A DNA stretch of 64,000 nt, taken from an uncultured Actinomycetota bacterium. Its GTDB lineage: Bacteria; Actinomycetota; Actinomycetes; Propionibacteriales; Propionibacteriaceae. The stretch is taken from positions 260,243 through 324,242 of the forward strand of contig CAVVTA010000009.1 of the NCBI GenBank assembly GCA_963751045.1, in the 5' to 3' direction. Below, piece after piece: positions 5,730 through 15,246 of the stretch. Numbering within the stretch: the first letter of the stretch is position 1; each line of letters opens with the position of its first letter. A model generated the notes under the pieces. The model worked only from the letters and a program-made list of their open reading frames with translations, was not told the DNA's origin and made no database searches. The translations under genes were made by a program, and so were the position numbers.

Positions 5730-6785
5730 ATGAGAGGACCCGCGATGGAGGCACCCCTGGAACTGGGCATCGACACCTTCGGTGACGTCACGGTCGGGCC
5801 GGACGGGGGCCGGCTGAGCCACAGCGAGGTGCTCCGCAACCTGGTCGAACAGGCGGTGGTGGCCGATCGGGTGGGACTGTCGTTCATCGGCGTCGGAGAG
5901 CATCACCGCGAAGATTTCGCGGTCTCCGCGCCGGACGTCGTGCTGGCGGCCATCGCGGGGCGGACGGAGCGGATCCGGCTCGGGTCGGCGGTGACCGTCC
6001 TCAGCTCGGACGACCCGGTTCGTGTGTTCCAACGGTTCGCAACTCTCGACGGCCTCTCCGGCGGTCGGGCCGAGGTGATCCTGGGACGCGGCTCGTTCAC
6101 CGAGTCCTTCCCGCTGTTCGGCTATCAGCTCGCCGACTACGAGGATCTTTTCGCCGAGAAGCTCGACCTGTTCGTGGCGCTGCGCGAGCAGCGACCGGTG
6201 ACCTGGAGTGGCCGGACTCGGGCCGGGCTCGACCAGCAGATGGTCTACCCGCCCGTCGCGAAGCCGCCGCTGAAAACCTGGGTCGGGGTCGGCGGTAGCC
6301 CTCAATCGGTGATCAGAACCGCTCGCTACGGGCTGCCGATGATGTTGGCCATCATCGGTGGGCAGCCGATGGCGTTCGCCCCGTACGTGCAGTTGTTCCA
6401 CGAGGCGCTGACCCAGCTGAAGTTGCCCGCTCAACCGGTCGGCGTGCACTCACCCGGGTACGTCGCCGCCAGCGACGAGCAGGCGATGCACGAACTGTGG
6501 CCGCACTACTCGGTGATGATGACGAGGATCGGCCGCGAGCGGGGCTGGCCGCCGCTGACCCGGGATCAGTTCGAGTTGCAGGCGGGCCCGGACGGATCGC
6601 TGTTCGTGGGTTCCCCGGAAACGGTGGCGACCAAGATCGCAACGGTGGCCCGAGGCCTGGGCCTGGCCCGATTCGACCTCAAATACAGCCACGGCACGTT
6701 GGCCCATGAGCAACTGATGACCTGCATCGAGCTTTACGGGACCGAGGTCGCTCCTCGGGTGCAGACGCTGCTGGCGAGGACCTAG
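5730..6785 (+). CDS. LLM-class (luciferase-like) flavin-dependent oxidoreductase
   Basis: LELGIDTFGD...GLSFIGVGEHH...SGGRAEVILGRGS is typical of this class. An alternative ATG lies at 5745. Confidence 0.8.
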   Translation: MRGPAMEAPLELGIDTFGDVTVGPDGGRLSHSEVLRNLVEQAVVADRVGLSFIGVGEHHREDFAVSAPDVVLAAIAGRTERIRLGSAVTVLSSDDPVRVFQRFATLDGLSGGRAEVILGRGSFTESFPLFGYQLADYEDLFAEKLDLFVALREQRPVTWSGRTRAGLDQQMVYPPVAKPPLKTWVGVGGSPQSVIRTARYGLPMMLAIIGGQPMAFAPYVQLFHEALTQLKLPAQPVGVHSPGYVAASDEQAMHELWPHYSVMMTRIGRERGWPPLTRDQFELQAGPDGSLFVGSPETVATKIATVARGLGLARFDLKYSHGTLAHEQLMTCIELYGTEVAPRVQTLLART

Positions 6786-7177
6786 CCCGCGCTGCTCATG
6801 GCGGCCACCGTCACGATGATCGTGAAGATGAGGAAGAACACGATCGTGACGATTCCGAGGATCGTGAACACCATGCCGAGGATGCGCCCGATGTTGATGT
6901 TCTGCTCGTTGCTGTAATGCTGACCCGAGGCCCGGATCTCCTTCAGCGCCTTGCTGCCGAGATACCAGGCGAAGGGGGCGGCCAGGGTGAAGAAGATGCC
7001 GACGATACCGAGCACCAGCACGGTCGTGCCTTGCGGGTGCTCTTGCGGAGCCATCGGATAACTCTGCCCGTACTGCATCGGAGCGGCGGGCTGGTTCGGT
7101 GCGGTCGGCTGCGACGGCGGCGGCGACGAATAGGGATCGTTCGGCTGCGACGGCGACGGCGAATACGGATCGGTCAT
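6782..7177 (-). CDS. DUF4190-type small membrane protein with Pro-rich N-terminus
   Basis: Pro/Ser/Gln-rich head followed by two TM helices (GTTVLVLGIVGIFFTLAAPFAWYLG...GRILGMVFTILGIVTIVFFLIF). Confidence 0.7.
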   Translation of the reverse strand: MTDPYSPSPSQPNDPYSSPPPSQPTAPNQPAAPMQYGQSYPMAPQEHPQGTTVLVLGIVGIFFTLAAPFAWYLGSKALKEIRASGQHYSNEQNINIGRILGMVFTILGIVTIVFFLIFTIIVTVAAMSSAG

Positions 7178-7247: not shown

Positions 7248-7949
7248 TCAATTGGAGAATGCTCCGACGGCGACTCCGATAATCACGAATACGACAGCCA
7301 ACACGAGCAACACGACCGAGATGATGCCCAGCACCCACCCGGCGGTGGCCAGTCCACGGCCGCTGTACTGGCCGGGGGCGGCGTCGATCTCCTTCCGCAC
7401 CCGTCCTCCCAGCACAAGGCCGCCGATGCCGACCGGAGTGCAGACCACCATCCCGACCAGGCCCAGCACGAAAGCCGTCACGGCCTGTGGATGGTTGGGC
7501 GGTGGGCCGTACGCGGCGTACCCGGGATAAGCACCTTGGTAGGGGGTCACCTCGTAGGGGTTACTGCCGTAACCGCCGGAGGACGGCGCTTCTGGATGGC
7601 TCTGGGGGGCATCGGCCGACGACGGATAGCTGGAGGAGGATCCGTAGCCCGGCATGGACTGCGGATCGTACGGCTGATACGGCGGCTGGTAGGGCTGCTG
7701 GTAGGGCTGCTGGTAGGGCTGATCCGGCGGCAGCGGGCGCGTCGGCTCCGTCCCGGACGGCGGGTAGCCCGGCCAGTCCGGAGCCGAGGATGCCGACGAG
7801 GGTCCCGCAGCGGTCGAGCCCGAGTCGGAGCTCGGGCGCTCCCAACCGGTCGGCTGCCCTGAAGAGGGGTCGCTCCCCGAGTCGGGGGCCGGCCTGCGGG
7901 GGTCGGTCGGATCGGGTCCGCTGTCAGTCATGGTTCTAGTCTGAGCCAT
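7248..7949 (-). CDS. DUF4190-type membrane protein with a long Pro/Gln/Tyr-rich N-terminus
   Basis: The C-terminus AVTAFVLGLVGMVVCTPVGIGGLVLG...ATAGWVLGIISVVLLVLAVVFVIIG matches the DUF4190 pattern. The head contains QPYQQPYQQPYQPPYQPY. Confidence 0.7.
   Translation of the reverse strand: MAQTRTMTDSGPDPTDPRRPAPDSGSDPSSGQPTGWERPSSDSGSTAAGPSSASSAPDWPGYPPSGTEPTRPLPPDQPYQQPYQQPYQPPYQPYDPQSMPGYGSSSSYPSSADAPQSHPEAPSSGGYGSNPYEVTPYQGAYPGYAAYGPPPNHPQAVTAFVLGLVGMVVCTPVGIGGLVLGGRVRKEIDAAPGQYSGRGLATAGWVLGIISVVLLVLAVVFVIIGVAVGAFSN
7685..7720. repeat. Perfect tandem 12-nt repeat x3 inside the DUF4190 gene
   Basis: GCTGGTAGGGCT x3 on the plus strand, encoding (QPYQ)x3 on the minus strand. Confidence 0.85.
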
Positions 7950-7988: not shown

Positions 7989-9443
7989 TCAGCTGCTCGA
8001 CTCCTCAGACCGTGCCGGCAAGATCTCGAGGACCGTCCCGTAATCGGGAACTTTGGGACCTTGTGTAAGGAGCCAGGCCAACGCGTCCGAGGGCCGCTCA
8101 TCGTGTTCCTGACACCGGCGCGCAATCGCCCCACTGATCTGCGGGGTGGCGAATGAGGTACCCGACCAAACCGCCCACGGGTTCTCGCCGGTGAACACGT
8201 CTGGAGCGTGACGATCGATCTCCTTGGTTTCCCGGCCGCGGACGAAGGGGGCCAGCACGCACTCTGCTGTCGTCGAGCAGGTGATCCAGAACCCGCGCGA
8301 GGAGAAGTCGGCCGGCTCCAGATCCACGGACAGGCCGGCCACCGCGACCACCGGGACGCCCAGCTGAGGCATACCGCTGAAGGCGGCCGGAAACACCGGA
8401 CGCGAGGTGGCGTTGTTTCCCGCCGCCGCGACCACGACGACGTCGCGCTCAGAATCAGCGGCGAGCCTCTCGCCGATGATCTCCAGGGCCACCATCGTGG
8501 CCACCGGAGGCTGGTCGTGAGGCGTCTCGGTGCCGAGCGAGAGGTTGATGATGTCCGCGCCGGCGTCGAACGCCTCCAGCATGGCGATGGCCACATCGAC
8601 GTCCACCCCGATGCCGTCCTGGCCGATCGCCCGCCGAACGAGCAGGTCGGCGGTCGGCGCCACCTGCCGCACCACACCCGCGACGAAGGTGCCGTGACCG
8701 GCGCAGTAGTCGAACTCACCCAATCCGTCCTCCCCGGCCCCTACCACCTCGTACAACGGGTCGATGTCGGCTTCGTCAGGTGTGATCCCGTCTAGCCAGC
8801 GGTCACTCCGGGCCTGGGTGCTGAAGCCGGTGTCAATAACCGCCACCTTGATCGGGCGCGTGGGCGACCCTTGCTCGGGTGGGCGCACCGGCCTCCGCTC
8901 CGTGGGCTCGGGTCCGGTCTCCCGCGGATCACCCTTGGTCACGTAAGCCCCCAGCGGCTCGACCTGATTCAGCGAAGCCTGGTAGCCGGCCAACCGAAGC
9001 TCCTCGACCGCGAGTGCCAACTCTCCGGTGGTCAGTTTGGGGTTGGAGAGCAGCGTGACGCGGGCGTCCAGCTGTTCCACCGGGTCCTCGGTGAAGTTGT
9101 AGTTCCGCAAGAGGTCGCGCATGGATGCCACCCGATAAACATCGTCGCGGCCGTCCAGGTCAGCGGTGCGGACGACGATCTCGTCGAGGGTGAGTAGTGG
9201 TTGCCCGGTCTCGTCGATGACCTGCTTCAGGCGTGCCCCGGTCGACTTGAGCAGCCCGCCCGGCCTCAGGCGCCGCTGGATCAGTCTGGTGTTGATCGCC
9301 AGGTGCTTCCTGCGCCGGCTGGACACGCTTCCGAGCAGACCTGATCGCTGCAACTCTGCCGCCGTGCGATCGGCCGGCCTCGGCAGAGGATAGCTGTCCC
9401 CGCCGACCAAGTCGAAGGGTCGTCCGGGTGAGACGTTGGGCAT
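7989..9443 (-). CDS. S8 family serine peptidase (subtilase) without signal peptide, with an approximately 200-aa N-terminal extension
   Basis: Catalytic motifs VAVIDTGF (Asp codon 8832-8834), AGHGTFVAG (His 8694-8696) and SGTSFATP (Ser 8154-8156). GAGAGGA lies 7 nt upstream of the ATG. The N-terminus is hydrophilic. Confidence 0.85.
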   Translation of the reverse strand: MPNVSPGRPFDLVGGDSYPLPRPADRTAAELQRSGLLGSVSSRRRKHLAINTRLIQRRLRPGGLLKSTGARLKQVIDETGQPLLTLDEIVVRTADLDGRDDVYRVASMRDLLRNYNFTEDPVEQLDARVTLLSNPKLTTGELALAVEELRLAGYQASLNQVEPLGAYVTKGDPRETGPEPTERRPVRPPEQGSPTRPIKVAVIDTGFSTQARSDRWLDGITPDEADIDPLYEVVGAGEDGLGEFDYCAGHGTFVAGVVRQVAPTADLLVRRAIGQDGIGVDVDVAIAMLEAFDAGADIINLSLGTETPHDQPPVATMVALEIIGERLAADSERDVVVVAAAGNNATSRPVFPAAFSGMPQLGVPVVAVAGLSVDLEPADFSSRGFWITCSTTAECVLAPFVRGRETKEIDRHAPDVFTGENPWAVWSGTSFATPQISGAIARRCQEHDERPSDALAWLLTQGPKVPDYGTVLEILPARSEESSS

Positions 9444-9479
9444 TCTGCGGTCCTCTCGGTTGGGGAATCGGTCGCCCGG

Positions 9480-12158
9480 TCAGGCGGCACCGTAGGCGTT
9501 GAACGCACACCAATTGACGAATTCACGCTGATCGTCGAGGTCTAGCTCCGCGCGGGCCGCAGACAGCGCTTCCCCGAGGGTTTGTCCAGCACGGACTCGC
9601 TGATGCAGGCCTTGCATCAGCGGCACCGAAGCCGCGTCGGGCACCAACACGACGCTGGCCACCAGACCGCAGGTGCCACGGGCGAGTAAAGCGCTGACGA
9701 AACCCAGCACCTCGTTGCCTTCGTACGCCGTCTCGACCGCCGAATCGCAGGACGCCAAGATCATGCGGTACGGTGCGACGCCTCGGATGCTCATCTCGTG
9801 CAAGGTGAGGAGCCCATCCTGCAGCTGTAGGCCAGAGAAGGCCGGGTTGTCCGCCCGCAGGCGGCCGTGACAGGCGATGTGGGCGACGTCGGCTGTCGCC
9901 AACGGAGGCAGCACCGCTTCGATGGTCGACGCCGGGGGGAGAAGCACCGTCGGGGAGGCGTACAGGTCACGCAGCAGGGTCACTTCCTCGACGGCGCCGG
10001 GCAGGTCCCGCCCGGCCACGAGCAGCACCTCGTCGGTGCTCCTCCGCGGCCGGGACGTGCGTTCCCAGAACGAGGCCGCGGGCACCACGAATACCGGCGC
10101 GCGGTGCAACGCCGACCAGGGCACGCGTCGGAGACTCGTTGTCGGGCTGACCACGACCGGTTGGTCGTCCGCCAGACCCACGGGTCGGAGGAGCTGATCA
10201 TAGAGGGCGACGAGCGCATGGTCCACACTCGCCCGGGCTGCGTCGGCAGCCGCCTGCGACCGGGCGGGGCGGGTCAACCGACGCAAGCCGAACAGCAGCA
10301 CCTCGACGCATCGCCGGACCTCGGCCACGGCTCCGAGCGGTAGCACCCGCGTGCGTTGCCGGTCCAGCACGACGGCGATGACCCGGTCGTCCAGGACGGC
10401 GTACTCGATCAAGACCCGATCACCGAGCTGCCGCCGCAGGTCGGCCATGCTCAGCGGGCGATGCGCCTCGCGCAGATCTCCGGAGCTGCTCCAGGTGCGG
10501 CGCCGGATCTCCTCCTCGATCTTGCGCTGCCGAGCCAGCTGGTCCCAGGAGTCGCCGTCGCCTACGCGTTGCGCCTCGACGATCTCCTCCTGGACGACCC
10601 GGAGTTCGGCGAGTTCGTCGTCGATGCCGACCTCGACCGTCGGCTCGACGGCGACCAGGGCTGCGGCCCGGGTCCGTTCCAGCCAGGCCAGTATCTGGGC
10701 CGGACGCCCGTGCCTCATCAAGGCCTCCAGCCCGAGCTGGCCGAGTTCGGCGCCATGACCGGAGGCGCGGACCCGCAACTCGAGCGAAGCGAAGGCGGCC
10801 CGGTGCTGGGCAAGATCATCGAGGCCGGCCCGACAGTGTCGCAGGCGGGTGCGGTCGGACTCGGCGGTGGCCAGGGAGCGGGCCACATGAGCCTTCAGGC
10901 GGAGCAGGACAGGCGCGGAACGGCCGAGTGCCGCCGCGCGGTTGAGGTTCTCCAGGGCCGGTTTGCGCCGACCCAGCCGGAGGGCGATCCGCCCGGCAAT
11001 CAGATGAGCATCGATTGCGTACGAGGGCAACCGCAGCTGCTCGAGGGTCGCAGCGGCGCGCCGGACGGTCGTCAACGTGGCCGGCGAGGCGTCTCCGGAC
11101 CGGTACTGGACTTCCCCGATGATCACGTCGGCCCGGACGCGCCAGGGGATTCGACGCTGCTGGGTGAAGCGGTCATGTGCGCGCTGCGCGGCACGGGTGG
11201 CGGCCTCGCTCTCGCCCAGCAGCGCGGCCAGCCGCGCCACCCGGAGCAGACCTTCGCCGGTCATCAGGTCGACTCCGTGACGCTCCAGCTCGTCGGCCGC
11301 CTGCACGGCCATCGCGTAGGCCTCCGGCAACAACCGCAGGTCGGTCAGGGCATCGACGTACTCGAGATAGTGCTCGGCGAGCGGTAGACCGGCCACCGTG
11401 TGCAGCCGCGCCGCTTCGTCGAACTCCTCCAGTCCCTGGGTGAGCCGACCCGTCTGGGTGCTGATCCAGGCCCGCGTCGAAGAGAGCACAGCGGTCTGAT
11501 GCGGGCCCACATCGGGGAATGAGGCCCCGAGATCGACCAGCCGAAGTGCGTCATCCGGGTGACCGAGTTGGGACTGAATGATCGCGTAGTTGTTGGCCGC
11601 CTTGGCTTTGACGACCGCGGACGCGCCCGAGTCGTTGATGATGCGTCGGTAGCTGACGCCCGCCCGGGACAGCTGGCCAAGACTCTGGTAGAGCACCGCT
11701 TGTTGGAAGGTCAGTTCGGGAGCCCCGCGACTGGGACTCAGCTTGGCGGCCGCGTCCAGGTCATGCTGGGCGGGGATCAGCCGACCCAGTTCGTGGTTCA
11801 CCGCCGCTCGGGTGAGCAAGACCTCGTGCAACTCGCCGTCCAGATGATGCCGACGAGCGAGGCGGACCGCTTCGTCCAGCAATTCCTTGGCTTGCCGGTT
11901 GTCCAACCGAGACCGTTCGACCCAGGCCTGGGCTCGGAGAGCGGGCACGAGGGCGGTCGGCATGTTCGCCGCTCGGGCCTCCGAGGCGATCTGGGCGGCC
12001 TGCGACCCGAAACCCTGCGGATCGGCCACGACGTGTGCGTAGAGTGCCCGCGCCCGTTCGGTCAGGTCGGGCTGATCCGGGTGCTGGATCAACGCGGTCA
12101 CGGACTCCGTCGGCGCGCGAGGCAGGAGAACAGGCCGCGCGGCGTCCGGTTGATCCAT
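9480..12158 (-). CDS. TPR-repeat / CHAT-domain (caspase-like) protease
   Basis: The N-terminal ~550 aa is helical-repeat (TPR-like) sequence. The C-terminal CHAT signature is VAHIACHG...YRMILASCDS (His codon 9867-9869, Cys codon 9747-9749). GGAGGAA lies 10 nt upstream of the ATG at 12158. Confidence 0.85.
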   Translation of the reverse strand: MDQPDAARPVLLPRAPTESVTALIQHPDQPDLTERARALYAHVVADPQGFGSQAAQIASEARAANMPTALVPALRAQAWVERSRLDNRQAKELLDEAVRLARRHHLDGELHEVLLTRAAVNHELGRLIPAQHDLDAAAKLSPSRGAPELTFQQAVLYQSLGQLSRAGVSYRRIINDSGASAVVKAKAANNYAIIQSQLGHPDDALRLVDLGASFPDVGPHQTAVLSSTRAWISTQTGRLTQGLEEFDEAARLHTVAGLPLAEHYLEYVDALTDLRLLPEAYAMAVQAADELERHGVDLMTGEGLLRVARLAALLGESEAATRAAQRAHDRFTQQRRIPWRVRADVIIGEVQYRSGDASPATLTTVRRAAATLEQLRLPSYAIDAHLIAGRIALRLGRRKPALENLNRAAALGRSAPVLLRLKAHVARSLATAESDRTRLRHCRAGLDDLAQHRAAFASLELRVRASGHGAELGQLGLEALMRHGRPAQILAWLERTRAAALVAVEPTVEVGIDDELAELRVVQEEIVEAQRVGDGDSWDQLARQRKIEEEIRRRTWSSSGDLREAHRPLSMADLRRQLGDRVLIEYAVLDDRVIAVVLDRQRTRVLPLGAVAEVRRCVEVLLFGLRRLTRPARSQAAADAARASVDHALVALYDQLLRPVGLADDQPVVVSPTTSLRRVPWSALHRAPVFVVPAASFWERTSRPRRSTDEVLLVAGRDLPGAVEEVTLLRDLYASPTVLLPPASTIEAVLPPLATADVAHIACHGRLRADNPAFSGLQLQDGLLTLHEMSIRGVAPYRMILASCDSAVETAYEGNEVLGFVSALLARGTCGLVASVVLVPDAASVPLMQGLHQRVRAGQTLGEALSAARAELDLDDQREFVNWCAFNAYGAA

Positions 12159-12192
12159 CTGGCAACGCTTCCTCCGCGTGCGAACCGTGCGC

Positions 12193-12216
12193 GGCAGTCA
12201 ATCCGGCAGTCAATCC
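12193..12216. repeat. Perfect tandem 12-mer x2 (GGCAGTCAATCC on plus; GGATTGACTGCC on the gene-sense strand)
   Basis: Units at 12193-12204 and 12205-12216, 35-58 nt upstream of the CHAT gene ATG at 12158. Confidence 0.8.
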
Positions 12217-12295
12217 CTGATGAGTTTCTGAGGCTATCGCAGTGCGGATCCTTCAGCGGTCCTGGTGGAGGCGGATAGCGGGTCGTCGATCGCGG

Positions 12296-12826
12296 TCAGG
12301 CCGTGATGTTGATCCAGTCGGTGACCGCGGTCGACGCATCGCGGCGCAGCCGGAACCGCAGCGGCCCAGAGCCCGGAGCGTGCAGTGTGAAGGACCCCAG
12401 TTCATCGGTGTGAACCGTGCTGCGCCGGCCGTCCGGCCGCTCGGCCACGACCTCGGCCGGTCCGGGTGGGCTGACCTGACCCACGACCCCGTCGTCGGAG
12501 ATCTCGATCTCGAGCGAGAGGTCGTCCGACTCGAAGGCCAGGGTCCTCGTCGCAATCACCGTCGCCCGACTGGCACTTTCCAGTTTGTCCTCCCAGAGGG
12601 AGTCGAAGACCAGCGCGGCGAGCTCGTCGGTGATGGCGGCGAACGAGAAGGCGTCTTGACCCTTGGCGATCAGCTCGTCCTGCCGGGGATGGCGGGCGCG
12701 GGCGAGGGCCTCACCGAGGGCGGCGAGGAGCGCATCGTCGTTCGCCCGCAACGCGGGATCCAGCGGGGTCGTGTCCATGGCGTTCACCTCCTTGTCCTCG
12801 TTGATTCGGCCATCGTGTTCGGTCAT
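12296..12826 (-). CDS. Hypothetical soluble protein (160-176 aa) at the anti-sigma position
   Basis: The ORF starts 25 nt after the sigma gene stop. It has no Cys and no TM segment. A stronger start is the ATG at 12778, preceded by AAGGAGG 8 nt upstream. Acidic helical N-terminal half and beta-rich C-terminal half. Confidence 0.6.
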   Translation of the reverse strand: MTEHDGRINEDKEVNAMDTTPLDPALRANDDALLAALGEALARARHPRQDELIAKGQDAFSFAAITDELAALVFDSLWEDKLESASRATVIATRTLAFESDDLSLEIEISDDGVVGQVSPPGPAEVVAERPDGRRSTVHTDELGSFTLHAPGSGPLRFRLRRDASTAVTDWINITA

Positions 12827-12851
12827 CGCGATTCTGTTTCTTCCTGTGGTT

Positions 12852-13499
12852 CTAGCCGGGGCTTTCGGCGGTCAAGAGGGCGGCCAAGGACGGACTGCGT
12901 CGAAGCCGTTGCAGCGCGCGGGCCCGGGTGGGTCCGATCGCCCCGACGGGGATTCCCAGTCGGTCGCTGATGTCGGTGTAGCTGACCGGTGGATCCTGCA
13001 GCAGCAGGGTCAACAGCTCTCGATGCCGCGGGTTCAGTTCGGCGAATGCGACCAGCAGAGCCTCATGTCGTTCGTTTCGCATCAGTTCGTCGCCGATGTC
13101 GTTATCTTCAGCGGCCGGCCCTCGACTGCGCGGTGGATCGAGCAACGGATCGAAGGACGCGGTCCGCTGCCGGATCCGCAGCACCCGCAGGCACTCGTTC
13201 CGGGTGGTGGTGACGATCCAGCCAGGCAGCGCGGCCGGTTCGCGCAGCGAGGACAGATGCTGAATAAGACGCAGCCACACGGTCTGTGATACGTCCGCCG
13301 CATCCTGCTCACTCATCCGGTAGCGGGCGGCGACCGACATGACGAGCGGGTTGAAGCGTACGACCAGTTCATCCCAGGCGTCCTTCTCGCCTTGGACTGC
13401 GGCGTGCACCAATTCAGCGATGGTGTGATCGGATGGCTCCACCACTGCGCAAGCAACTCCCAACCGGTATGGGAACTGTAGTAGCTGTGGAGGTGGCAT
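12852..13499 (-). CDS. ECF-type (sigma-70 family) RNA polymerase sigma factor
   Basis: Region 2 (DAWDELVVRFNPLVMSVAARY...DVSQTVWLRL) and region 4 HTH (SYTDISDRLGIPVGAIGPTRARALQRL). The ATG at 13499 lacks an SD. The GTG at 13445 has GGGAG about 9 nt upstream and may be the true start. Confidence 0.85.
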   Translation of the reverse strand: MPPPQLLQFPYRLGVACAVVEPSDHTIAELVHAAVQGEKDAWDELVVRFNPLVMSVAARYRMSEQDAADVSQTVWLRLIQHLSSLREPAALPGWIVTTTRNECLRVLRIRQRTASFDPLLDPPRSRGPAAEDNDIGDELMRNERHEALLVAFAELNPRHRELLTLLLQDPPVSYTDISDRLGIPVGAIGPTRARALQRLRRSPSLAALLTAESPG

Positions 13500-13615
13500 T
13501 TGCTACGTCAGATCCCCGGAACCGTCGCGTGATACCTCGTCACCGGTGCTGTCCCGGTGAAACGGATCGTAGTGGGTCGCGTCCTCGACTTCTCGCAGCG
13601 TGCCTGGGGTGGAAG

Positions 13616-14605
13616 TCAGGCGATCAGGCCGAGGGAGCGCACGGCCTCGCGCTCCTCGTCCAGTTCGGAGGTGCTGGCGTCGATCTTGCCCCGAGAGAAG
13701 TCGTCGATCTCCAGCCCCTGGACGATCTCGTACGACCGGCCGGCCGTCGTACACGGGAAGGAGGAGATGAGTCCCTCCGGCACCCCGTACGAGCCGTCGG
13801 ACGGTACCGACATCGAGACCCAGTCGCCGTCCGGCGTACCGAGCACCCAGTCGCGCATGTGGTCGACGGTGGCGTTGGCGGCACTGGCCGCTGAACTGGC
13901 GCCACGGGCTTCGATGATGGCGGCGCCGCGCTGCTGCACAGTGGGGAGGAAGGTGTCCTCGATCCAGGCCTGGTCGTCGATCAGCTCGGCGGCGTTGCGG
14001 CCCTTCACCTCCGCGTGGAAAAGATCCGGGTACTGAGTAGCGGAGTGGTTGCCCCAGATCGTCATCTTCTTGATGTCGTTCACGCTGCTGTCCGTCTTGG
14101 CCGCGAGCTGGGCGAGGGCGCGGTTGTGGTCGAGCCGGGTCAAGGCGTTGAAGCGCTCGGCCGGAATGTCGGGGGCGTTGCTCTTGGTGATCAAAGCGTT
14201 CGTGTTGGCGGGGTTGCCGGTGATCAGAACGAGCACGTCGTCGGCGGCATGATCGTTCAGCGCGCGACCCTGCGGCTTGAAGATCGCCCCGTTGGCCTCC
14301 AGCAGGTCACCGCGCTCCATGCCCTTGCTCCGGGGACGGGCTCCGACCAGGAGCGCCAGGTTGACGCCGTCGAACACCGTATTCGGGTCGTCGCCGATCT
14401 CGACGCGGCTGAGCAGCGGGAACGCGCAGTCGTCGAGCTCCATCACCACCCCCTCGAGGCTCTTCAGGGCCGGCGTGATTTCCAGCAGGCGGAGCTCCAC
14501 CGGCGTGTCCGGTCCGAGCAGCGACCCACTGGCGATCCGGAACAACAAGCTGTAGCCGATCTGGCCTGCGGCTCCGGTGACGGCGACCTTCACGGGTGTA
14601 CTCAC
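13616..14605 (-). CDS. mdh: Malate dehydrogenase
   Basis: [23 protein letters not shown]...[15 protein letters not shown]...WGNHS. The long ORF 13616-14926 is trimmed to the GTG at 14605, which is preceded by GGAGGAG. Confidence 0.92.
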
Positions 14606-14688
14606 GGCTGTTCTCCTCCGGCGCTGGACGGATCTCAGGAATCCCCTTCGTACGCTGACGCTAGCAAGCGTGCGCCGGGGAGGCTGGA

Positions 14689-15246
14689 GTGGTCGTTGTC
14701 GTATCGCCCGACGAGGCGGTGACCGCCGTTCGGTGCGCCCTCGGTGACCGGGACGGAACTCGGTGGATTGGGATCGACGGTTTCGGGGCCTCCGGCAAGA
14801 CGACGCTGGCTGACAGGATCGCGGCGGTCCTGTCGAGGGCGGTCGTTGTGCACGTCGACGACTTCGCCCGGCCCGATGTGCGGGGGTGGGAGCGGGCCCG
14901 GTTCTCGAGCCAGGTCCTCCAGCCACTGCTGGCCGGTCGTCCAGCTCGATATCAGCGCTGGGACTGGAACAGCAACGCCGGCGCGGAGTGGCACGTGGTT
15001 CCGGTCGGCGTGCCGGTGGTCGTGGAGGGGGTCTCGTCCACCGACGTCCGGATCGGGGTGCCCTGGGATGTCACGGTCTGGGTTGACGTCCCGTACGACG
15101 TTCGGTTGGCCCGGGCGCGGGAACGCGACGGCCCGGACATGCTGGACCGCTGGCTGACCGACTGGATGCCGAGTGAAGAGGCGTACGCCCGGGAGCAACG
15201 TCCGCAGGACCGCGTCGACCTGATCGTGGCGGGCTCGACGCCCTGA
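14689..15246 (+). CDS. P-loop nucleoside/nucleotide kinase family protein (uridine kinase-like)
   Basis: Walker A motif [14 protein letters not shown] and a size of about 185 aa. Confidence 0.65.

Follow-up and report, generated by a model that had tools for sequence, protein, structure and literature searches.

An ECF54-like sigma factor locus with a TPR-CHAT protease and a subtilase in an uncultured member of the Propionibacteriaceae: a possible proteolysis-gated switch

The locus and the closest described systems

A group of four genes is considered here, found in a 64-kb stretch of DNA (64,000 nucleotides, hereafter the window) from an uncultured Actinomycetota bacterium of the family Propionibacteriaceae (GenBank assembly GCA_963751045.1, contig CAVVTA010000009.1). 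The genes encode a sigma factor of the extracytoplasmic function (ECF) type, a small partner protein, a caspase-like protease of the TPR-CHAT class and an S8 subtilase. The module they form is real and widespread, and its composition is not a new kind of system; that it works as a proteolysis-gated switch is an attractive hypothesis. The closest described group of sigma factors is ECF54, which is defined by comparative genomics alone. In the supplement of the ECF reclassification preprint (10.1101/2019.12.11.873521), 100% of the group is actinobacterial; position +1 always encodes a carboxypeptidase-regulatory-like protein, +2/-1 a subtilase and +3/-2 a CHAT protein. The promoter predicted there, GTATCAG-Xn-CTCC, agrees with that of Huang et al. 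(2015), and the proteases are allowed a role in "regulation or response". The content of the study by Huang, Pinto, Fritz and Mascher (2015) is cited here through two later papers summarizing it. In a review of non-canonical ECF sigma factors, proteases were proposed to act on the ECF54 sigma factor directly (PMC8999054).

Sigma factors and proteases are also linked in systems of other composition. In the CASP system of type III-E CRISPR loci, Cas7-11-Csx29 cleaves Csx30 in a flexible loop and thereby releases CASP-sigma (PMC10028731). In the type III-B system of Haliangium ochraceum, SAVED-CHAT activates PCaspase, and PCc-sigma and PCi are encoded together with them (10.1101/2023.06.23.546230). 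In Myxococcus xanthus, the ECF sigma factor DdvS is paired with DdvA, a transmembrane anti-sigma factor carrying a periplasmic TPR-CHAT domain; the His-Cys site of DdvA is incomplete, and release of the sigma factor is thought to need RseP (PMC11506125). A further precedent is CalpL-CalpT-CalpS, where the SAVED-Lon protease CalpL cleaves the anti-sigma factor CalpT and releases the sigma factor CalpS.

The four genes of the window lie on the minus strand in the order sigma factor (12852-13499, 215 aa), partner (12296-12826, 176 aa), TPR-CHAT protein (9480-12158, 892 aa) and S8 subtilase (7989-9443, 484 aa), separated by gaps of 25, 137 and 36 nt. This layout, given in an earlier note made from the sequence alone, was reproduced, and the Pfam searches proposed there matched the expected families in the respective open reading frames (ORFs). 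The sigma factor matches Sigma70_r2 (9.5e-14) and Sigma70_r4 (6.3e-07) and, in NCBIfam, TIGR02937 sigma70-ECF (3e-22), a generic model of the ECF superfamily, no specific equivalog being reached; its designation as an ECF sigma factor therefore stands. The CHAT protein matches CHAT (1.1e-31) and TPR_2, and the subtilase matches Peptidase_S8 (3.9e-22). The hydrophobicity profiles contain no N-terminal signal-like or transmembrane-grade segment in any of the four proteins, so all four are cytoplasmic, including the S8 protease, for which this had been claimed. Neither terminator-like sites nor Rfam elements were found between the four genes.

By five of the six defining features, all but the group hidden Markov model score, the sigma factor of the window can be called ECF54-like; NCBIfam holds no model specific to ECF54. 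It consists of the sigma2 and sigma4 regions only, without a further domain, belongs to an Actinobacteria-only family (GC content 65-72%) and has a subtilase and a TPR-CHAT protein as neighbours. The next gene downstream encodes a protein with a confidently modelled C-terminal beta-sandwich, and 28 of the 49 members of its family match CarboxypepD_reg (PF13620; best 2e-06), the window copy staying below the threshold at 0.055. The predicted promoter reads GTATCAC-N15-ATCTGA, in which the -35 element agrees with the published one in 6 of 7 positions and the -10 element is similar, not identical. The locus thus shares with ECF54 the Actinobacteria-only sigma factor, the carboxypeptidase-regulatory-like protein at +1, the subtilase, the TPR-CHAT protein and the lack of a recognizable anti-sigma factor. 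It differs in having CHAT at +2 and S8 at +3, whereas the typical ECF54 positions are +3/-2 for CHAT and +2/-1 for the subtilase, and in a -10 element ATCT instead of the published CTCC.

The earlier note knew of no characterized system with this composition. The composition and the promoter of ECF54 were, however, described in 2015 (Huang et al.) and again in 2021 (Casas-Pastor et al., ECF Hub), and regulation by proteases had been proposed before, so that this claim of novelty was overstated. The main text of PMC7826278 places ECF54 near a 4Fe-4S protein, and the supplement of its preprint assigns 4Fe-4S/DUF3470 to ECF58 and the subtilase, CarboxypepD_reg and CHAT to ECF54; the former statement looks like a slip that could mislead annotation.

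Conservation of the module and its promoter

One genome per GTDB species was scanned with an alignment of the CHAT protein. This gave 182 matching stretches, from which 80 loci were kept. All 80 belong to Actinomycetota and are distributed over Micromonosporaceae, Pseudonocardiaceae, Geodermatophilaceae, Nakamurella, Jiangellaceae, Kineosporiaceae, Streptosporangiaceae, Frankiales and others. Among the scanned genomes, an uncultured soil metagenome-assembled genome is the closest, with 91% identity.

Gene neighbourhoods were counted in those 57 loci that had 5 kb or more of sequence on either side, and the sigma factor and partner were sought within 7 kb. The S8 gene adjoins CHAT in 56 of these loci, which makes CHAT-S8 the tightest pair of the module. 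The sigma factor and the partner are present in 38 loci, always both together (38/38), and the other 19 contain CHAT-S8 without either of them within this distance. In these 19 loci, no third conserved component was found beyond local synteny. At least 10 distinct gene arrangements with unrelated flanks occur. In the commonest one, S8 and CHAT are divergent and the sigma-partner genes stand behind S8; the co-directional order of the window (sigma, partner, CHAT, S8) belongs to a minority of 4/57 loci. Sampling in the reverse direction, from four diverse partner proteins, revealed an ECF sigma factor plus CHAT and/or S8 alongside in all four cases. Annotated contigs with relatives of CHAT or of the partner likewise have the four families side by side, the order varying and the flanks being unrelated. 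The neighbourhood analysis suggested by the earlier note has thus found the four families co-conserved across Actinomycetota in varied orders and flanks, and their linkage is far beyond chance. One locus, L086 (4392-7471), has the sigma-partner genes beside a truncated CHAT protein of 418 aa and no S8 gene within 7 kb; the module may be degenerate here, or present in a minimal form.

Co-variation of the proteins was estimated by a mirror-tree approach, as partial correlations of pairwise sequence distances in 46 complete loci. The values follow a chain: 0.49 for sigma-partner, 0.48 for partner-CHAT and 0.52 for CHAT-S8. The other pairs gave 0.00 (S8-partner), 0.15 (S8-sigma) and 0.22 (CHAT-sigma). 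After length equalization, with CHAT subsampled to the length of the partner, the chain persisted, its values then being 0.58, 0.37 and 0.39.

A k-mer count in the upstream regions of the 80 loci flagged the word GTATCA, the instances of which were then aligned. The family-wide consensus obtained de novo is GTATCA-N16/17-CTCT; in some instances the second box reads ATCT, and G/T and A often come next. Within 240-nt upstream windows, GTATCA occurs before S8 in 46/77 cases, before sigma in 21/51 and before CHAT in 2/78, the expectation being 1.7% of windows. The strict two-box pattern has 100 matches in 2.36 Mb, 59 of which fall inside upstream windows of the module and none inside those of CHAT (0/78). 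The CHAT genes lack a sigma-type promoter, so CHAT is not a target of the sigma factor in most genomes. From this distribution, S8 looks like a sigma-dependent output and not like an equal co-sensor beside CHAT. Among the 19 CHAT-S8 loci without a sigma factor, 14 keep GTATCA upstream of S8, which implies a cognate sigma factor elsewhere in those genomes.

Two further words found upstream of CHAT, TAGGAT and GGATAGTC, were rejected as promoter elements: they are the antisense of the conserved N-terminal coding motif GGDxYP of S8. In a subclade of Micromonosporaceae, a gene for a class III adenylate/guanylate cyclase (190-230 aa; Guanylate_cyc 1.1e-15) lies directly downstream of CHAT (loci L021, L044, L045, L050, L056, L060, L061, L067 and L085 (~9620-10370, plus strand); weaker in L032). 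This gene, absent from the window, is preceded by GTATCA-N16-CTCTGA and is for this reason a predicted extra member of the regulon.

In the window, the predicted ECF54-type promoter occupies positions 13508-13535 of the minus strand and was recognized by motif match and conservation in orthologues. It consists of GTATCA (13535-13530), a 16-nt spacer and ATCTGA (13513-13508). The stretch GTATCACGCGACGGTTCCGGGGATCT at 13535-13510, followed by GA at 13509-13508, is the sole minus-strand match to the motif in the 64 kb. According to the alignment, the promoter is conserved in the orthologous loci L006, L007, L010 and L013. It ends about 9 nt before the ATG of the sigma gene at 13499. The 54 nt following this ATG differ between orthologues by synonymous changes and in-frame indels, so translation probably begins at this ATG and includes the N-terminal extension. 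The sigma mRNA would then be leaderless or have a very short leader. An alternative start, GTG at 13445 behind GGGAG, was judged less likely, as the preceding 54 nt evolve like coding sequence. With no terminators between the genes, this single sigma promoter could drive all four genes of the window.

Just upstream of the predicted -35 element lie a clade-conserved block, CCACTACGATCCGTT (13575-13561, minus strand), and an inverted repeat CACCGG...CCGGTG (13559-13554 / 13546-13541, minus strand). Together they may form an operator or a hairpin; the distance from this region to the promoter differs among the orthologues.

The partner protein and the two proteases

The partner of the window has no Pfam match above the threshold, and it is defined here by its AlphaFold2 model, the family alignment and the pairing with the sigma factor. 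The model, built on 18 homologues, contains N-terminal helices at 24-43 and 49-85 (moderate confidence), a flexible linker at about 76-93 (predicted local distance difference test (pLDDT) below 50) and a C-terminal carboxypeptidase-regulatory-like beta-sandwich at 94-174 (pLDDT above 90). A full HMMER search (E<=1e-3) gave 2527 representative clusters at 50% identity, nearly all of 145-180 aa. Helix 1 is conserved at D30 and L37, and the end of helix 2 at A70, L72, D75 and S76 (motif 'ALV[FY]DS'); the sandwich keeps the motifs VGQ..P, G.F and W.

The position of the small protein after the sigma factor, ascribed to an anti-sigma factor in the earlier note, is borne out by the family. The partner follows the sigma gene on the same strand in 49/51 loci. 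The aligned part of the partner starts at a median distance of 5 nt from the sigma stop, and the two genes overlap in 22/49 loci, a geometry typical of a sigma/anti-sigma pair. One protein from the representative-protein search, P0265 (301 aa), reads as a continuous fusion of region 2, region 4 and the partner; it looks genuine and is a single case. This natural fusion lends weak Rosetta-stone support to a sigma-partner interaction. A second candidate fusion, P0154 (350 aa), was rejected because its region 4 is read in the wrong frame, an artefact of a frameshift.

A known anti-sigma fold was sought in the partner by several routes. None of the 49 family members matches an anti-sigma Pfam family (class I ASD / zf-HC2, RskA etc.), even at E<=1, and the partner profile retrieved neither Csx30 (8eey) nor another anti-sigma chain from the PDB at E<=10. 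An anti-sigma or Csx30-like fold was rejected as a description of the partner; the structure and sequence searches returned only generic Ig-like or carboxypeptidase-regulatory-like beta-sandwiches.

The CHAT protein comprises about 13 TPR-like helical hairpins (~30-560) and a CHAT domain (~580-892). Its dyad, reported earlier as intact, is found as H764 and C804 at the positions then given and is invariant in 20/20 relatives. The AlphaFold2 model has a pLDDT of 82.7 and a predicted TM-score (pTM) of 0.74. Its top Foldseek matches are separase (2e-13), DdvA (1.2e-12) and Csx29 (8eey_B, 1.4e-12), with TM-scores of 0.24-0.46. Compared with the PDB by sequence, the best match is DdvA (8ROT, 1.3e-06), and that to Csx29 is marginal (0.0075). 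On these sequence and model comparisons, the protein is assigned to the same architectural class as Csx29 and not to the specific relatives of Csx29.

The 137-nt spacer between the partner and CHAT (12159-12295, minus strand) was examined in the alignment of orthologous loci. It contains a block conserved in the clade, CTGCGATAGCCTCAG (12242-12228, minus strand), which includes the TANNNT-like TAGCCT and is shared with L010, L013, L006 and L007; related blocks occur in L008 and L011. The clade-specific block CTGCGATAGCCT is the remaining, weak candidate for a promoter motif upstream of CHAT, and the spacer with CTGCGATAGCCTCAG may act as an internal promoter for CHAT-S8. The spacer also carries an exact tandem duplication of 12 nt, GGATTGACTGCC twice (12216-12193, minus strand). 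Each copy of this 12-mer has TTGACT, which is -35-like; in L010, the closest relative, the 12-mer occurs once, in diverged form.

The S8 subtilase has the catalytic residues D204, H250 and S430, conserved in 75-77 of 77 relatives, so the intact active site with S430 described before is upheld. The N-terminal region of about 195 aa has no Pfam match and is poorly conserved overall. Near the N-terminus, a motif GGDxYP(E/L) is kept across distant loci, including those of Micromonosporaceae, and the window copy reads LVGGDSYPLP (residues 12-21, ~9380-9410). The motif may mark a site of processing or docking.

The comparison with the Craspase-sigma circuit drawn in the earlier note holds in part: the fold class of the TPR-CHAT protein, the ECF sigma factor and the anti-sigma position agree, and the partner is unrelated to Csx30. 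The overall TPR-CHAT fold is shared with Csx29 of the CASP system, with separase and DdvA matching equally well, and the sigma factors of both are ECF-type. The logic may be shared as well, by analogy: a partner that binds the sigma factor through its N-terminal part and carries a further domain at the C-terminus, and proteolysis that frees an autoregulating sigma factor. The layout of helices, linker and sandwich in the window partner recalls Csx30. The partner has 176 aa, however, whereas Csx30 has 565 aa, and the two do not match in sequence or fold. Csx31 is missing here and an S8 protease is additional. As there is no Cas7-11, crRNA or CRISPR array, activation is not RNA-guided.

Like the SAVED-CHAT/PCaspase system, the locus encodes two proteases, a sigma factor and a small protein together, and the tight pairing of CHAT with S8 would, by analogy, fit a cascade. 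The sensor of that system is a cA3-binding SAVED domain, whereas a TPR array is found here; its second protease is a C14 caspase and not an S8 subtilase; its small protein inhibits a protease, while the partner in the present family tracks the sigma factor and not a protease. With DdvS-DdvA the locus has in common an ECF sigma factor tied to a TPR-CHAT module of the separase/craspase type. In DdvA the CHAT domain is fused to the anti-sigma factor and is periplasmic, while the CHAT protein here is separate and soluble with a complete, invariant dyad, and the putative anti-sigma factor is a separate small protein. CalpL-CalpT-CalpS and DegS/RseP-RseA-RpoE differ in the protease families (Lon; S1/M50) and in the signals (cyclic oligoadenylate; envelope stress). 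Their anti-sigma factors are membrane-bound or CRISPR-linked, and neither contains a subtilase or a carboxypeptidase-regulatory-like partner.

In the clade of the window, the locus is situated among housekeeping genes without a mobile context. The flanks described before were recovered, with mdh as the ORF 13616-14926 (Ldh_1_N/Ldh_1_C) on one side and DUF4190 as the ORFs 7248-7949 and 6782-7177 on the other. The lack of a CRISPR context was likewise confirmed: the 64 kb contain no CRISPR-like array, and no Cas Pfam family was found within +/-7-8 kb in nine annotated loci. A scan with PADLOC-DB 2.0 gave no match for CHAT, sigma or partner and no defence system; S8 had weak generic subtilase matches only (7.8e-06 and 9e-04). 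No relatives were found on viral contigs. A role in defence against phages was rejected, there being no PADLOC system, viral contig, CRISPR array or Rfam element to support it. Inside the DUF4190 ORF 7248-7949 there is a 12-nt tandem repeat, GCTGGTAGGGCT, with 4.1 copies (7673-7721), which probably encodes a short peptide repeat rich in Pro, Ser, Tyr and Gln on the minus strand.

A possible proteolytic switch and its alternatives

The model put forward for the module has the partner as a soluble anti-sigma factor, CHAT as a sensing protease that cleaves the partner, and S8 as a second protease induced by the sigma factor. The partner would be co-translated with the sigma factor and would hold it inactive through the N-terminal helices. 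The TPR-CHAT protein would be made independently of the sigma factor in most genomes, and its TPR array would sense a cytoplasmic cue. CHAT would then cleave the partner, likely within the flexible linker that follows Asp75-Ser76, an invariant pair. The freed sigma factor would transcribe its own operon from the GTATCA/CTCT promoter, which in the window could mean all four genes. It would also induce S8, a second-tier protease serving as effector or reset and possibly itself processed by CHAT. The protein-protein steps are all inferred, and the model as a whole is offered tentatively, with slightly less than an even chance of being right.

Several lines of evidence are consistent with it. They are the conservation of the module, the anti-sigma-like placement of the partner and its architecture, the distribution of the promoter, the chain of co-variation and the intact active sites. 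Precedents, by analogy, are Csx29-Csx30-CASP-sigma, SAVED-CHAT/PCaspase/PCc-sigma and DdvA-DdvS.

Other points weigh against the model. Neither by sequence nor by fold could the partner be matched to a known anti-sigma family. One third of the CHAT-S8 pairs have no sigma factor or partner nearby, so that the tie between proteases and sigma factor is not a strict one. The co-variation is no more than suggestive, being confounded by the history that adjacent genes have in common. ECF sigma factors generally autoregulate, and the proposal that this one recognizes GTATCA/CTCT rests by analogy on that general rule. The sigma-type promoter on S8 would be explained just as well if the proteases were outputs only. 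The ECF54 entry itself lists "no putative anti-sigma factor" (10.1101/2019.12.11.873521 supplement), and the literature search found no experimental study of ECF54, no interaction or cleavage having been shown for any member.

If the proteases are outputs only, the sigma factor and the partner would be an ordinary pair answering a non-proteolytic cue. The sigma factor would switch on S8 and, in the window, also CHAT, and CHAT-S8 would be an effector whose targets are other proteins, the cell's own or foreign ones, as might occur in developmental proteolysis, dormancy or cell death. This would explain why the sigma-type promoter is so frequent on S8 (46/77 loci, including 14/19 without a nearby sigma factor) and why the window has all four genes, uninterrupted by terminators, behind one sigma promoter. 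It would also suit the closeness of CHAT-S8 (56/57), a pair that is sigma-free in 19/57 loci, and the phrase "regulation or response" in the ECF54 literature permits it. The CHAT gene, however, has no such promoter (0/78 by the strict pattern, 2/78 by the hexamer), and co-variation with the partner is seen for CHAT (partial r 0.48) but not for S8 (0.00). Furthermore, the loci share no other conserved component that could act as a sensor. Proteases acting as outputs only are considered less likely than the proteolytic switch and are its main competitor.

Alternatively, the proteases might act on the sigma factor itself. There would be no anti-sigma factor in this case; CHAT and/or S8 would degrade the sigma factor, either keeping it off or shutting it down, and the small protein would be an adaptor, protector or decoy. 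Such direct action was proposed for ECF54 (PMC8999054), the second protease cleaves the sigma factor itself in the SAVED-CHAT/PCaspase system, and an S8 protease induced by the sigma factor would provide negative feedback. Against this, the co-variation of the sigma factor with CHAT (0.22) and S8 (0.15) is weak compared with that with the partner (0.49), and a gene placed so strictly after the sigma gene, with overlap, bears the signature of a stoichiometric binding partner. The sigma factor, having sigma2 and sigma4 only, also lacks an obvious degron domain. Direct degradation thus appears improbable.

Still less credible is a small protein that does not bind the sigma factor and serves as a PCi-like inhibitor of S8 or CHAT. 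The parts match those of the Haliangium cluster (CHAT, second protease, sigma factor, small protein), and beta-sandwich domains can serve as protease-binding modules. Yet the small protein always accompanies the sigma factor (38/38) and is absent from 19 loci with S8 and CHAT, its partial correlation with S8 is 0.00, and it resembles neither CI-2 nor other inhibitor families. Chance or local gene order, which simple inheritance could suggest from the syntenic order and flanks (mdh, DUF4190) in the window clade alone, is refuted and has practically no chance of being the explanation, as the four families recur in unrelated flanks, in rearranged orders, in several actinobacterial orders and with a common promoter motif.

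ECF54 is among the few ECF groups without a known regulator or a studied member. The proteolytic switch turns the vague published suggestion of protease involvement into an ordered model with a defined promoter, candidate catalytic residues and a candidate cleavage linker. In its broadest form, which is possible and on balance doubtful, ECF54 would be a CRISPR-independent, entirely cytoplasmic caspase-like cascade. A constitutive TPR-CHAT protease would sense a cue inside the cell and cleave a new type of soluble anti-sigma factor, built of two helices and a carboxypeptidase-regulatory-like beta-sandwich; the freed sigma factor would induce almost exclusively S8, in Micromonosporaceae also a class III cyclase; and the S8 tier would execute the response. 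Such a cascade would be a free-standing evolutionary counterpart of Craspase-sigma and SAVED-CHAT/PCaspase. If the proteolytic switch is confirmed, the partner would represent a new family of soluble anti-sigma factors with more than 2500 sequence clusters, and the control of sigma factors by TPR-CHAT proteases would be a free-standing design of bacterial signalling and not an accessory invention of CRISPR systems.

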